Shown here: in pieces, positions 2,604-14,938 of the stretch
How the letters are laid out: each line of letters opens with the position of its first letter
How positions within the stretch are numbered: position 1 is the stretch's first letter
Sequence record: PQ818763
Strand: one strand, 5' to 3'
DNA: 64,000 nucleotides
Origin: Shigella phage ShigP1
Position numbers and translations under genes: made by a program
The notes under the pieces: generated by a model
Databases searched by the model: none
Seen by the model: only the letters and a program-made list of their open reading frames with translations
Told to the model about the DNA's origin: nothing

Positions 2604-2851
2604 TGCGTATTATCCACCAAAAGTTCTGCTGATACAGGAACAACTCGGCACCAGATAGAAGGTGCTGTTACGTTACCATCGGATAGACGAAGAGTAATTG
2701 TTCGATCAGAGTTAACGGTTACATTAGGACTTTCAGACACAGACCCTTTAACATAGAGAGTAGCACTCTCAGGGAATTTAAACACTGCTCCGCTGGGGAG
2801 GGAGTTGAGATCAATCGTGGTCACTTCTTCTTTCTTGTGGGTAATCTTCAT
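2600..2851 (-). CDS. small protein, paralog family 1
   Basis: ORF track; LPSGAVFKF motif; start overlaps upstream stop. Confidence 0.5.
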   Translation of the reverse strand: MKITHKKEEVTTIDLNSLPSGAVFKFPESATLYVKGSVSESPNVTVNSDRTITLRLSDGNVTAPSIWCRVVPVSAELLVDNTQ

Positions 2852-3102
2852 TTAGAATCCTTAATAACGTTAGCTTCAACCTTAACAGGAATAACAGAGA
2901 TGCCCTCAACGGGGCCACTTAAGTGTCCATCTTCCAGTCTGACACACACGACTCGATCTCGTGCAACTTCTACCCAATTAGTAGATGCCGCAGTACAGAC
3001 CATATGAATTGGACCGTTCTCTTCCAGCCGGAAGGTATCGCCCTTCTTCAGAGTGTGGAGTTTCACAGTCTTGATAGTTTTGTTCAATTCGTTAACTTTC
3101 AT
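2848..3102 (-). CDS. small protein, paralog family 1
   Basis: ORF track; LKKGDTFRL motif. Confidence 0.5.
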   Translation of the reverse strand: MKVNELNKTIKTVKLHTLKKGDTFRLEENGPIHMVCTAASTNWVEVARDRVVCVRLEDGHLSGPVEGISVIPVKVEANVIKDSK

Positions 3103-5366: not shown

Positions 5367-5442
5367 TGGTGCGCCCTACAGGACTCGAACCTGTAACCAA
5401 TAGCTTAGAAGGCTACTGCTCTATCCATTGAGCTAAGAGCGC
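5367..5442 (-). tRNA. tRNA-Arg (anticodon UCU)
   Basis: Hand fold: acceptor GCGCTCT/AGGGCGC, D-arm GCTC-AATGGATA-GAGC, anticodon stem GTAGC/GCTAT with loop CTTCTAA, T-arm ACAGG-TTCGAGT-CCTGT, discriminator A, encoded CCA; 76 nt. Confidence 0.8.
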
Positions 5443-11066: not shown

Positions 11067-11975
11067 TTATGCCGCCTGACGTGCCGCCATAATTTCAGCC
11101 GCTTTACGCAATACTTCTTCCTCTTCTGCTTTCGCCGCTTGTTCGGTACGGGTAGCAACCGTTGAAGAGATACGACCGCGCAGACTTTCTAACTTCTCCT
11201 GCATAGCTGCAACAGTCTTTTCCATTTCATCAGCGTATGAATCGAGTGATTCTAATTCCTTGCTTGATGCGTTCATCAGATAATCATCCGAGATCGCTAC
11301 CGTCGAGGCCGTGATTTTCTTGATGAGTGAATCAAAGGACTTTTTAACCTTCCCAACTTCTTCACTCAGGGCGATAGTGTTATCGCTGGTTGCGCCGTTG
11401 CGCTCATCAGCCAGTAATTTGGCTTCAATACGGATTGCATTCAAGCGTTCAACCAAAGCGTAAATATCCTGATTAAAATCTTCCTTGTTTTTCGCCGGAA
11501 TTTGCAGGTGTGCCGCCACGTTGTCATTGCAACCTTTGTAGAAGTTAGGATTATCCACTTCAATTGCACGACCTAATGCAAAGTTTTCGAAAGCGTTTGA
11601 CCAGCGGGCACGGTTTTGCTCCATTTTGGCTTTAATTTGCGCTTCTTTCGCATCTTCTTTAGCTTTCGCTTCACCTTCCAGATTAATCCACTTCTTACGA
11701 CCATTTGACGCATCAGTGTTAAACTTGATAGGAGTTAAGAAAGTGATCGCGGTGGCAATAACATCCATATCGCGGAAACGTTCGGTTAACAGGAAGTCAA
11801 CCGCCGCCTGCAATACATCTAACTTCTTACCGTTGCTACGAAAGTGCTGCAAATGACCTAACAGGAAGTTAGAAACATCTTGTTTGATCGCTGCATTATT
11901 GCTACGGATATTGTTAGCCAGAGCATTAAAACCAGATTCGTTAACCAGAGTAAAGATTTTAGCCATAATATTCAC
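11067..11975 (-). CDS. hypothetical protein (302 aa), coiled-coil rich C-terminal half
   Basis: ORF track; no recognised motif. Confidence 0.5.
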   Translation of the reverse strand: MNIMAKIFTLVNESGFNALANNIRSNNAAIKQDVSNFLLGHLQHFRSNGKKLDVLQAAVDFLLTERFRDMDVIATAITFLTPIKFNTDASNGRKKWINLEGEAKAKEDAKEAQIKAKMEQNRARWSNAFENFALGRAIEVDNPNFYKGCNDNVAAHLQIPAKNKEDFNQDIYALVERLNAIRIEAKLLADERNGATSDNTIALSEEVGKVKKSFDSLIKKITASTVAISDDYLMNASSKELESLDSYADEMEKTVAAMQEKLESLRGRISSTVATRTEQAAKAEEEEVLRKAAEIMAARQAA

Positions 11976-12786
11976 CTTTCAATTGTAAGGGCGCTATTGC
12001 CCCGCTCTCTATGAGCAATTCAAGTCACTATTGACTTAACTATAACCACTCATTGTAAGTAGTTATAGGTAAGCGGGGCGGTCTTATCAGGAGTTAACCT
12101 TGCCGCCCCCTTATCCGTGATGTTTCATCTGGTATCTTTAATTAGTCGCTATAAACGAAGCCGACCTGATAGCGATGATCAATCATCACAATAAGGCAGT
12201 GCGTCCGACTCTAATTAGTTACGTTATTGTAACCGTCGGCAATATCGTTTACTTTGCTTTCGCTCTCGCCTATCCTTTTATATCAACTCTCAATCGCTAG
12301 TCATCGCCCACTACGGGATACTATTGCGAAAGAGTCATTGACCGTCTAATGTTCCGACGTTTTATATCTTTCGGCAAGTTTACTACATAAACCGACTATG
12401 TACTTTCATCATAAGATGAATCTCAAGCCGTTCACATCGTAAACGTTCACACTAAACCTTATTGTTAAATAGCAATTTGCCACTTTTTAACCATTCACCG
12501 CCGCTCTCAATTGAGCGTTAATTCGTCGGGATTGCCTACCCTGATTAACTTCTTTCACCGTAGCACCATGTTAGCGATGACCGCCGCTACCCTTAACCGT
12601 GGGCGATTAGCTTAAGTCTTTGCGTGTACTCAATGAATCCGTTTATCAATGGTGACGTTTCCAGTAAGGGAATGTAAAACTGTTTACCCTGATAATTTAG
12701 GGAGTTTTACGCCGTTTTATCTGGTATGCTTTCCGATGGTTATTATCATCAAGCATATTCAACCGATATAGGAGAATGTTTAAATT

Positions 12787-13729
12787 ATTAAAGAGCGGTA
12801 AATCTATCAGTGTGCTTTCTCACACTATGCAACTGTTAGCCGTTGTTACGCTTTTCACTGAAGCGATGATTTGCTTAGTGAGTGCTCATTATGAATCATG
12901 TTGTTTTCGCTGTCAACCGCTTTTTAATCTTTTTCGTCGTTCCCGCTATTGGGAGGATATATCAATCAGCTTTATTTGATTGAAGATTAAGCGGTGAGGC
13001 TTAACTTATGACTCATGTTGTTAAAGAGCGTTTAGCCTTTTAAAGTGTCTGCTAATCACTGTCACATTGAAGGCTTACTGATTCATTAACAGGCCGCCTA
13101 CACCTGAACTAATCGCTGCACTATGTGCCACCTTTCCCGCGATACGTTGATTTGGGAACTAGTTAGCGATGTTTTGCTAACTTGTGGTTAGTATGGACTA
13201 CTTTAACCACGTTTGCAACTCTTTTTATCATCTTCTTTTAATTCCTTTCCCTTATCTCGCGTGAATCTATGCGAAAGGGCAAGATGATAAGTCTGATTTG
13301 TCTTTCAGGGAATCTAGTGCGCTTTCAAGCATTAATCTTTTGAAAGTATCGAACAAATAAGGCTTATTGATATTGCTTATTGTCCGCCTGCGTCACGTAT
13401 GAATCAGGAATCAATTCTACCGATTAACTGAGCGCCTTATAGTAATGACGTCGCCGCCACCCGTAAGACAAATCATATTTTTAAAGAGCGGGATTTTTTA
13501 AGTCATCGCTGACTATGCTCACTATATATCAGGCTGTTTTCGGTGTCAATACTCTTTTTAAGAATATTTTCACTTTCTAGCCTGATTTTTAAAGAGCGGG
13601 GCAAGTTTCCTTGCCTTGTATGTTTTACATCGTACCCGATGAAATGAAGTATACATTAATCAGTGAGGGATGCAATAGGGTAAAACAAAATATTTTAAAC
13701 TTTTTCACTATAGGAAGGTAAAAGAGCGG
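12787..13729 (+). repeat. five dispersed copies of the motif TTTAAAGAGCGG in an ORF-poor region
   Basis: Copies at 12787-12798, 13020-13031, 13480-13491, 13588-13599, 13718-13729, all in the same orientation; copy 4 is followed by a GGCAAG-TTTC-CTTGCC hairpin. Confidence 0.6.
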
Positions 13730-13935
13730 GCGAACGTGATACATCATAGGAAAAGGCTTGTAAAGCGATAACAAGCGGCCTATAACGCATCACAATGAGC
13801 TAAAAGGGAGTAAGGTATACAATCACCTTAGAAAAGAAAAAAGCCTCATAGCGAGGCTTATAGGAAGGATTTAAAGCATCAGATAGATTATGACCATAGG
13901 CATGACTACGGCACAATACAGGAGAAAGATTAAGC

Positions 13936-14301
13936 CTATGGATTTACACATTGACCATTACCGGACTCAATTTCATTCATGGACTCATCAAAGAGCGTCA
14001 ACGATGAGCGCATCAAGTGATCTATCGTGATTTGTTTACCGGTAGTTTCATTTACCAGCAGAATAGCTTTGTTATCTGATTGCACATGATCAAAATCATT
14101 TACATGCAAAATAATAACTTTAGGTGACTGTTTACCAGTTTCGTAATTCTCTACGAGATAGGTACACTGTAAACCGTCAACCGTATCAGGGGAGAATGTT
14201 GCAGCCTTAACGCTACCCATAGATGACAGCAGGACACCTAACAGGAGAACAACCAGAAAGAAGCCTACAAATACTTTCACTACAAACTTGATAACACCCA
14301 T
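13936..14301 (-). CDS. putative secreted or membrane protein (121 aa)
   Basis: N-terminal hydrophobic segment FVGFFLVVLLLGVLLS. Confidence 0.5.
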   Translation of the reverse strand: MGVIKFVVKVFVGFFLVVLLLGVLLSSMGSVKAATFSPDTVDGLQCTYLVENYETGKQSPKVIILHVNDFDHVQSDNKAILLVNETTGKQITIDHLMRSSLTLFDESMNEIESGNGQCVNP

Positions 14302-14396
14302 GATAATAAACCTTTAGTTAGAGAATGTAAGAATACAGCATATCAGCAATGAACAGCAGGAAGGTCGCACCAAACAAGCAACGCCAAAAATAATCA

Positions 14397-14672
14397 CTAT
14401 TCATCGTTGCTATTCTCGCCAAAAAATGCTACGCTAATCTGTTCCACTTCTTCCAGCGACAGGAGAATCCCGCGTTGGGCTAAATACTTCCCAACAGTTA
14501 GATAATCTTGCACTAAACAGACAATAGGAAAGCGTATGTTTTGTATCTCACCTTTAGAAAGAAAAGACAAATAACCAGCGTCGACTGATTCATCAAAGGA
14601 CAATGTAACGCCACCGTAATTATGCGTATCAATTAACGCAATAGTTTCATTTCCCATTGGTATCATCCCCAA
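14397..14672 (-). CDS. hypothetical protein (91 aa)
   Basis: ORF track only. Confidence 0.4.
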   Translation of the reverse strand: MGMIPMGNETIALIDTHNYGGVTLSFDESVDAGYLSFLSKGEIQNIRFPIVCLVQDYLTVGKYLAQRGILLSLEEVEQISVAFFGENSNDE

Positions 14673-14913
14673 TCAGACCATGATTAAGCAGGTTAGCCAG
14701 CGACAAATCACCGTCAATATAGATTGATCTGAAATCATCGCGGGTAATTTCGAAATCAGCAAAGGCTAGCCAATCTTTAAGAGGCTGATATTCCATCCTG
14801 CAAAAAGTGATAACAGGCAAGATTATCTGACCATCAAGTGTATTAAACTCGATAGATTGCCCACCAACAAAACAAGAAAAGCCGTTTGATAACTTAACTT
14901 CTTTGATAGCCAT
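14647..14913 (-). CDS. hypothetical protein (88 aa)
   Basis: ORF track only. Confidence 0.4.
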   Translation of the reverse strand: MAIKEVKLSNGFSCFVGGQSIEFNTLDGQIILPVITFCRMEYQPLKDWLAFADFEITRDDFRSIYIDGDLSLANLLNHGLIGDDTNGK

Positions 14914-14938
14914 TTTTACACTCCTGAAAATAGGTTAT

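Follow-up and report, generated by a model that had tools for sequence, protein, structure and literature searches.

What does a stretch of nearly 2 kb without genes, in which a short repeat recurs five times in one orientation, do for a phage? The question is raised by positions 11967-13935 of a 64,000-nucleotide stretch of Shigella phage ShigP1 (PQ818763), the whole of which we call the window. The window belongs to a Kuravirus-type (phiEco32-like) coliphage: the 2.1 kb around the repeats are 99% identical to Escherichia phage SkaterBoy_Bas90, and a blastn search of a phage collection matched this 2.1-kb region in about 97-98 Gordonclarkvirinae records (Kuravirus, Suseptimavirus and Nieuwekanaalvirus, including phiEco32, SU10 and ES17), all of them Escherichia or Shigella phage records. 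In phiEco32 this stretch corresponds to a gap of 1.94 kb that separates phi32_124 from phi32_125 (EU330206, 72787-74730). The genes on both sides of the gene-free stretch all lie on the minus strand, and its limits as given here include a correction of the downstream gene, which starts at an ATG behind AAAGGTGA and not at GTG 11975. A first-pass annotation had proposed an origin with iterons, a promoter cluster for a phage sigma-like factor or a set of small RNA genes. We consider it likely that the stretch is instead the front end of the main early transcription unit, organized like that of an rRNA operon, with BoxA antitermination signals ahead of a long leader RNA.

The five same-orientation copies reported in the first-pass annotation are indeed present. 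On the plus strand TTAAAGAGCGG is exact at 12788, 13481 and 13589 and has one mismatch at 13021 and 13719, and a repeat finder recovers the same five copies, spaced by 233, 460, 108 and 130 nt; the 12-mer under which they had been announced, TTTAAAGAGCGG, is exact in two of them (13480 and 13588) and not in the other three. With at most one mismatch, TTAAAGAGCGG has seven matches in the window for 0.95 expected, a number reached in none of 100 shuffles. Because transcription runs on the minus strand in this region, we read the motif on that strand, where it becomes (C)CGCTCTTTAAnAAT; its identity had stayed hidden because it had been read only on the plus strand. For gamma-proteobacteria the published consensus of BoxA is GYTCTTTAANA (Baniulyte et al. 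2017, PMC5725501), and four of the copies match it exactly, on the minus strand and within 0.8 kb. The consensus occurs six times across the 64 kb window (0.56 expected), and the two remaining matches are antisense to local genes, as judged from skew and orientation. Of all copies, copy 2 with its flanks, ACGCTCTTTAACAAC, is the closest to the rrn BoxA, TGCTCTTTAACAAT. The fifth copy, which reads GCTCTTTTACC, is degenerate, and the same degenerate form is kept in ECBP2, 172-1, EcoN5, MN05 and ES17.

Conservation points in the same direction. All 18 relatives that we fetched have four to five exact BoxA matches, in one orientation and all within this region. The 75 instances represent 68 distinct 86-nt contexts that have only the core C(C)GCTCTTTAAnAAT in common; the contexts have diverged while the core was kept, and selection therefore acts on the motif itself. 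Copy 1 together with its 5' flank is invariant in an alignment of the window with 17 relatives (columns T80-A94). By sequence, position and conservation the repeat is a BoxA, to which Nus factors would be expected to bind.

The copies occur together with host-type promoters. Two sigma-70 promoters, P-A and P-B (Table 1), occupy the spacer that separates the homologues of gp124 and gp125 and point at the early genes. A promoter cluster is thus present, as the first-pass annotation had suggested, but its promoters are those of host sigma-70, on the minus strand, and the repeat itself is no promoter element. The early promoters of this spacer are already in the literature: the SU10 paper describes three sigma-70 early promoters 'between CDS120 and CDS121' and states the same arrangement for phiEco32. 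P-A and P-B are two of these three, P-A being identical to the SU10 promoter listed at 73996 and P-B matching the one listed at 73511. P-B was found in 17 of the 17 relatives scanned for promoters, with TTGACG in five of them. Counted from the first base of the -35 hexamer, BoxA follows at 60 nt for P-A and at 120 nt for P-B. In relatives the module consists of a BoxA, 47-48 nt, a TTGACA-16/17-TATAAT-like promoter and a further BoxA about 47-64 nt past the start of the -35 hexamer, the distance from BoxA to the next -35 hexamer being fixed at 47-48 nt. Relatives have two to four promoter modules, some with perfect (12/12) promoters, and where the window has a decayed promoter upstream of BoxA copy 2 they carry TTGACA-16-TAGAAT or TTGACA-17-TATACT. 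Variation and indels in the region are concentrated in this module zone (about 13030-13900). Within it the block TTATCATCTTGCCCTTTCGCATA (13268-13290, minus strand) is 95% conserved; it directly follows BoxA in other phages and has no BoxA before it in the window, and is apparently what is left of a promoter-BoxA module that was lost.

This architecture bears on the idea that the motif has no function and is left over from the duplication of promoter modules. The promoters are clearly paralogous, P-A and P-B sharing a 34-nt repeat with 82% identity, and module number varies from two to four among relatives, as such a history would produce. A leftover would not be expected, however, to keep an invariant 13-nt core within some 68 diverged contexts, nor to have more than a small chance of equalling the host BoxA consensus, and copy 1, which stands in a different context 85 nt from P-B, is invariant in every aligned sequence. 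We consider this explanation highly improbable.

The other promoter-related proposal, that the repeat is an element recognized by the phage sigma factor gp36, was that of the first-pass annotation. Promoters for gp36 have the consensus tAATGTAtA, placed 6-8 nt ahead of the start site (phiEco32-type transcription literature). The stretch does hold one true element of this type, TAATGTATA at 13658-13650, and the window has six matches to the consensus for 0.70 expected, but tAATGTAtA is unrelated to CCGCTCTTTAA or its complement, and we give the proposal practically no chance. The element itself has the same direction as the early promoters, and of the relatives only Bas90, KBNP1711 and ECBP2 have it at this position; through it, transcription of the leader and the early genes could continue once gp79 has shut off sigma-70.

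The RNA behind the BoxA sites is untranslated over 0.8-1.5 kb. The scarcity of open reading frames (ORFs) noted at first sight is real: a single ORF of at least 60 aa is found, on the plus strand (12776-12979), and none of at least 30 aa on the minus strand between 11976 and 13503. That plus-strand ORF had been taken for spurious because it has no ribosome-binding site, and we agree, since the AGGAG only 1 nt before its ATG is too close to serve as one and phiEco32, Paul, LAMP and KBNP1711 have the frame only in split or truncated form. The comparison with related phages that the first-pass annotation had called for gave the same answer: among 18 relatives, neither strand has a conserved ORF in 11967-13935, and no gene is consistently annotated there. 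The tiny ORFs called in this stretch in EK5 are on both strands and not common to other phages, and gene callers have placed spurious small ORFs here in some records. Suseptimavirus SU7 has an annotated 66-aa ORF, SU7_114, in the variable module zone (2829-3029, minus strand); it has a ribosome-binding site, lies on the strand that is transcribed, and is without a counterpart in the window. From 13025 to the start codon the sequence is almost free of indels and 84-96% identical to relatives in 50-nt windows, a conservation equal to or above that of the adjacent gp124 gene (80-94%). Nevertheless, substitutions in the leader are spread evenly over the codon phases (139/130/146, p = 0.63), whereas those in gp124, used as a control, are not (86/53/298, p = 2e-53). 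On the transcribed strand the leader has 136 stop codons compared with 100.6 +/- 5.5 in dinucleotide shuffles, and its longest stop-free run is 41 codons compared with 75 +/- 17, none of 300 shuffles having one as short. The lack of a conserved ORF and of codon periodicity and the excess of stop codons lead us to reject a protein-coding or frameshifted gene. The Shine-Dalgarno-like AGGA is depleted (1 vs 4.0), as is GGA (7 vs 14.2), and we also reject a CsrA-type sponge on this ground. A scan for tRNA and tmRNA genes found none in the gene-free region.

This untranslated RNA has a conserved structure. The 922-nt leader folds at -281 kcal/mol, compared with -224 +/- 9 for shuffled sequences (z = -6.35), while two neighbouring coding RNAs of the same length, used as controls, give z = -0.21 and +0.88. 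TH34, the most divergent relative (about 75% identity), has z = -7.89 and the same overall architecture. In an alignment of 18 sequences (the window and 17 relatives), RNAalifold predicted 248 pairs, with 98.9% of cells paired. Seventy-three of these pairs have changes on both sides, a count that includes inherited changes, compared with 32.4 +/- 3.3 in column shuffles (0/500 reached it) and with only 6-10 when the partners were slid by 1-3 columns; the covariation score was 0.226 vs 0.119. The leader alignment contains 445 G-U cells against 17 A-C cells, and it folds at -249 kcal/mol (248 pairs) in the sense direction and at -171 (219 pairs) in the antisense direction. Because of this G-U excess and of the asymmetry between the two strands, we assign the structure to the minus-strand RNA and not to a DNA cruciform. 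The leader is thus no filler but, by these in silico results, a conserved RNA of about 0.8 kb with several base-paired domains. The small RNA genes suggested in the first-pass annotation thus survive in part: the stretch does encode non-coding RNA, as one long structured leader and not as a set of small genes.

The leader RNA seems to be restricted to this group of phages. Rfam 15 gave no match at the gathering score, and matches with E up to 10 were only noise. Searches further afield with an invariant 22-24-mer (IMG/VR, metagenomes and GTDB) yielded only close relatives, 88-94% identical, or nothing, and an invariant 24-mer had zero matches in 185,579 bacterial and archaeal genomes. By these sequence searches the RNA is confined to Gordonclarkvirinae coliphages and close metagenomic relatives.

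Three further features of the predicted structure deserve mention. First, in the RNAalifold prediction the leader as a whole is closed by a long-range helix of 9 bp between 12793-12803 and 11970-11980 (minus strand), in which BoxA copy 1, with its 5' flank and its first bases (AUUUACC..UC), pairs with the Shine-Dalgarno region of the first early gene (GA..GGUGAAU). Its positions are all invariant, so that covariation speaks neither for nor against it; if real, it would couple BoxA occupancy to translation of the gp124 homologue, and would recall the rrn leader-trailer helix. Second, TTGCTATTTAACAAT at 12461-12475 (minus strand) differs from the rrn BoxA by a single base (A for C at consensus position 4) and does not vary among all 18 relatives, and it is predicted to be buried in the hairpin between domains I and II. 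Third, the variable part between the promoters, 12882-13514 (minus strand), also folds better than shuffles (z = -4.29), and the transcript upstream of P-B may thus be structured too.

The evidence for an RNA also weighs on the proposal that the repeats are DNA sites, either iterons or operators, of an origin or of a repressor-controlled region, with transcripts acting as R-loop primers as at ColE1 and T4 origins. Direct repeats in one orientation within a long, gene-free, A/T-rich stretch would suit such a region, strong promoters beside a structured untranslated RNA recall transcription-primed origins, and to our knowledge the origin of phiEco32-like phages is unmapped. However, the spacing of the copies is irregular and their number varies among relatives, the motif coincides with a signal that acts at the level of RNA, even in its extended form GCTCTTTAAnAAT, and the structure is strand-specific and rich in G-U pairs, as expected for RNA and not for DNA. 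The copies are moreover co-oriented with transcription, and the flanking genes have no known function, neither Pfam nor PHROG giving an informative assignment for their products. The turning points of cumulative GC skew are near 16 kb and 46 kb and not at 12-14 kb, a weak indication as skew follows gene direction. The iteron origin of the first-pass annotation is thus very unlikely.

The strong promoters, the consensus BoxA soon after each start, the long untranslated structured RNA and then the early genes lead us to infer that the repeats are loading sites for Nus factors, serving processive early transcription. Strong tandem promoters, conserved BoxA matches, absence of coding capacity and a conserved RNA structure are all observed in silico on the one strand. 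Host sigma-70 RNA polymerase would start at P-A and P-B (to which relatives add decayed or extra copies), and the nascent RNA would carry BoxA, (C)CGCUCUUUAAnAAU, within about 25-95 nt of each start. NusB-S10 would then bind BoxA and, with NusA, NusG and probably SuhB/S4, turn the polymerase into a termination-resistant form. The converted polymerase would cross the 0.8-1.5 kb of untranslated RNA unstopped by Rho and continue into the early genes, and the antitermination complex might also take part in folding the leader RNA. In E. coli, untranslated RNA of 0.8-1.5 kb is a classic Rho target. In rRNA operons Rho is countered by BoxA, through which NusB/S10 and the other Nus factors are recruited (PMC6614797, PMC6614801), and more recent work has shown that BoxA ahead of CRISPR arrays keeps Rho from their long untranslated transcripts (Stringer et al. 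2020, PMC7665894).

The same observations could be explained if the BoxA copies were mainly decoys that soak up NusB/S10 (and SuhB), starve the rRNA operons and so aid host shut-off, protection of the transcript being secondary. Each transcript would carry four to five copies, made from near-consensus promoters helped by an A/T-rich stretch like the rrnB P1 UP element, and all the sequence evidence for BoxA is compatible with this idea. Yet each copy sits shortly past a start, precisely where a BoxA acting in cis would be, and as titration and action in cis are not separable by sequence, titration would be an addition to antitermination and not an alternative to it. As the principal function we find it improbable.

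Several observations weigh against antitermination through Nus factors, or against parts of the parallel with rRNA operons. The right end of the related Salmonella phage 7-11 has no E. coli-type BoxA consensus in the roughly 1 kb of its gene-free early leader. A hairpin lies 0-3 nt upstream of several BoxA copies, among them the perfect GGCAAG-TTTC-CTTGCC hairpin that the first-pass annotation had correctly located directly beside copy 4 (13600-13615); other phages have different hairpins at this position (GGCAAGAAATTGCC, GGCACTTAGTGCC and GGCTAGATGTTTAGCC), and in the hairpin at 12809-12826 three of the six pairs are changed on both sides and 100% of cells are paired in the 18-sequence alignment. 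A hairpin beside every BoxA is nevertheless no general rule: 18 of 51 distinct contexts have one adjoining, against 27% of random 32-mers (p = 0.13). Nor is any boxC-like element common to the 68 BoxA contexts compared. Because hairpin adjacency is not significantly above background and no boxC is shared, the full boxB-boxA-boxC layout of rrn leaders is not established. The leader, which has more G than C (207 vs 167) and is highly structured, may be a poor Rho substrate even without BoxA. Finally, the sequences compared are 75-99% identical, so that compensatory changes were partly inherited together, an effect that the control with slid partners addresses.

The resemblance to the leaders of E. 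coli rRNA (rrn) operons nonetheless extends over several features. Both have tandem strong sigma-70 promoters, the A/T-rich stretch ahead of P-A being like the rrnB P1 UP element; both have a BoxA shortly past the start, GCTCTTTAAnAAT in the phage and GCTCTTTAACAAT in rrnB; and in both a hairpin stands ahead of BoxA (for several of the phage copies) and a long, untranslated, highly structured RNA behind it. Read directly, the rrnB leader is GCCGCTGAGAAAAAGCGAAGCGGC-ACT-GCTCTTTAACAATTTATCA...TGTGTGGG, that is boxB hairpin, boxA and boxC, with the hairpin followed by ACT-GCTCTTTAACAATTTA. Antitermination in rrn operons needs no phage N protein, and we know of no N-like protein in phiEco32-like phages. 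The two systems differ in that the phage has four to five BoxA, one per promoter module, whereas rrn has one per operon segment. The phage contexts also lack a shared boxC, the RNA is not rRNA and has no Rfam match, and the transcript runs on into protein-coding early genes.

Other systems share some of these features. In the lambda nut sites the boxB hairpin, to which N binds, comes after boxA, and boxA itself has a weak variant sequence, CGCTCTTA. Lambda and the present phage have in common a phage-borne BoxA in early transcripts and the use of host Nus factors, the latter presumed in the phage studied here; unlike in lambda, the BoxA in the window is of the strong rrn type and the hairpins, where present, are upstream of it. 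A lambda-type nut site does not describe an arrangement in which hairpins precede BoxA (no N homologue was searched for). T7 (NC_001604) has one exact BoxA, CGCTCTTTAACAA, at 813-825, between promoter A3 (750) and gene 0.3 (925). It is likewise a podovirus with terminal repeats, in which three tandem promoters for the host polymerase, A1, A2 and A3, at the early-gene end of the genome are followed by an untranslated leader; however, the T7 leader is about 0.2-0.4 kb long with a single BoxA match, whereas that of the window is 0.8-1.5 kb long, with one BoxA per promoter and a fold supported by covariation. Among large RNAs, GOLLD and ROOL are often phage-associated. GOLLD and ROOL are large structured RNAs (PMC12286853), and like these and OLE the leader spans hundreds of nt in several covariation-supported domains, with a function that is in such RNAs unknown or partly known; it differs in having no sequence or structure match to them and in being the 5' leader of an mRNA. 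The BoxA elements of CRISPR arrays and suhB (PMC7665894, PMC5725501) are, as here, of the host type (GYTCTTTAANA) and ahead of a long untranslated RNA, but they are chromosomal and single-copy, in contrast with the multiple copies behind very strong promoters of a virulent phage. In phage 7-11, whose authors suspected an undefined antitermination strategy, the gene-free right end (about 1 kb, 13865-14917) lies upstream of gp151, where its early promoters were mapped.

A more far-reaching proposal sees in the leader a new family of large structured phage RNA that has its own function. It might bind or sequester a host factor during take-over, for instance, and would be made at the very start of infection by a polymerase that the BoxA array turns into a complex of the rRNA type for antitermination and folding. 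In that case the whole logic of rRNA operons (UP-element promoters, BoxA and chaperoned folding) would have been copied by a virulent phage for a non-ribosomal RNA. We offer this as a tentative possibility, which we would sooner doubt than defend.

Table 1. Positions of the features of the gene-free stretch and its downstream gene (window coordinates)
Feature	Position	Strand	Basis or remark
Intrinsic terminator AAGCCTCGCTATGAGGCTT + T-run	13831..13859	-	terminator scan; same sequence as SU10 terminator listed at 74441
Hairpin upstream of copy 5	13776-13756
Degenerate BoxA-like copy 5, CCGCTCTTTTACC	13717..13729	-	fails GYTCTTTAANA
TAATGTATA, exact gp36 (phage sigma) promoter consensus	13650..13658	-	about 50 nt upstream of hairpin and BoxA copy 4
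Hairpin GGCAAG-GAAA-CUUGCC on transcript	13600..13615	-	2 nt upstream of BoxA copy 4
BoxA copy 4, GCTCTTTAAAA	13587..13597	-	exact consensus
A/T-rich stretch GAAAATATTCTTAAAAAGAGTA ahead of P-A	13571-13550	-	resembles rrnB P1 UP element AGAAAATTATTTTAAATTTCCTC
Sigma-70 early promoter P-A, TTGACA-17-TATAGT	13549-13521	-	11/12 consensus positions; predicted start ~13514
Small hairpin GTCAGCGATGAC near copy 3	13513-13502	-
BoxA copy 3, GCTCTTTAAAA	13479..13489	-	exact consensus; ~25 nt past predicted P-A start
Decayed promoter GTGACA-16-TTAAAA	13038..13065	-	upstream of BoxA copy 2
BoxA copy 2, GCTCTTTAACA	13019..13029	-	exact consensus
Sigma-70 early promoter P-B, TTGACA-17-CATAAT	12888..12916	-	11/12 consensus positions; predicted start ~12882
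Hairpin AGUGUG-AGAAAG-CACACU, purine-rich loop	12809..12826	-	12 nt upstream of BoxA copy 1
BoxA copy 1, GCTCTTTAATA	12786..12796	-	exact consensus; ~85 nt past predicted P-B start
Untranslated structured leader RNA	11988..12784	-	conservation, no conserved ORF, no periodicity, stop excess, fold z, covariation, strand asymmetry
Predicted domain I	12784-12486	-	RNAalifold
Predicted hairpin with invariant BoxA-like TTGCTATTTAACAAT	12485-12467	-	RNAalifold
Predicted domain II	12465-12188	-	RNAalifold
Predicted 3' hairpin series, before Shine-Dalgarno	12187-11988	-	RNAalifold
First early gene after leader (phiEco32 gp124 homologue)	11067..11979	-	Shine-Dalgarno AAAGGTGA, ATG 11966-11964; strong third-position periodicity

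Upstream, the terminator ends the preceding early operon and forms the upstream edge of the gene-free region. The 121-aa early protein encoded just beyond it (13936-14301, minus strand) is called 'terminase' in PHROG 13168 and in many records. As Pfam gives no match for it and its gene lies in the early operon, the name looks like a propagated annotation error. The only tRNA gene of the 64-kb window is a tRNA-Arg (TCT) at 5367-5442 on the minus strand.

Apart from rRNA operons, the main known settings of BoxA and Nus-factor antitermination are lambdoid phages, where they act with N, and, since more recently, suhB and CRISPR arrays. In the library searched, no paper connects BoxA or Nus factors to phiEco32, Kuravirus or lytic phages, a prior mention in Savalia 2008 or Pavlova 2012 being possible; papers of 2022 and 2025 on phiEco32-type transcription have no mention of BoxA, and the paper on the BASEL collection does not discuss the region. 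We likewise came upon no description of the conserved, folded 0.8 kb leader RNA.

If our reading is correct, an rrn-type BoxA array behind early promoters would extend Nus antitermination to N-independent early transcription in phages. Such an array would be a candidate answer to the question of antitermination raised for phage 7-11, though 7-11 itself lacks the consensus, and the 0.8 kb leader, with its covariation support, is a candidate new large structured RNA. The phages of this group are common in nature and used in therapy studies, and because some members grow on E. coli K-12 (BASEL collection), the role of the leader is directly testable in that host.

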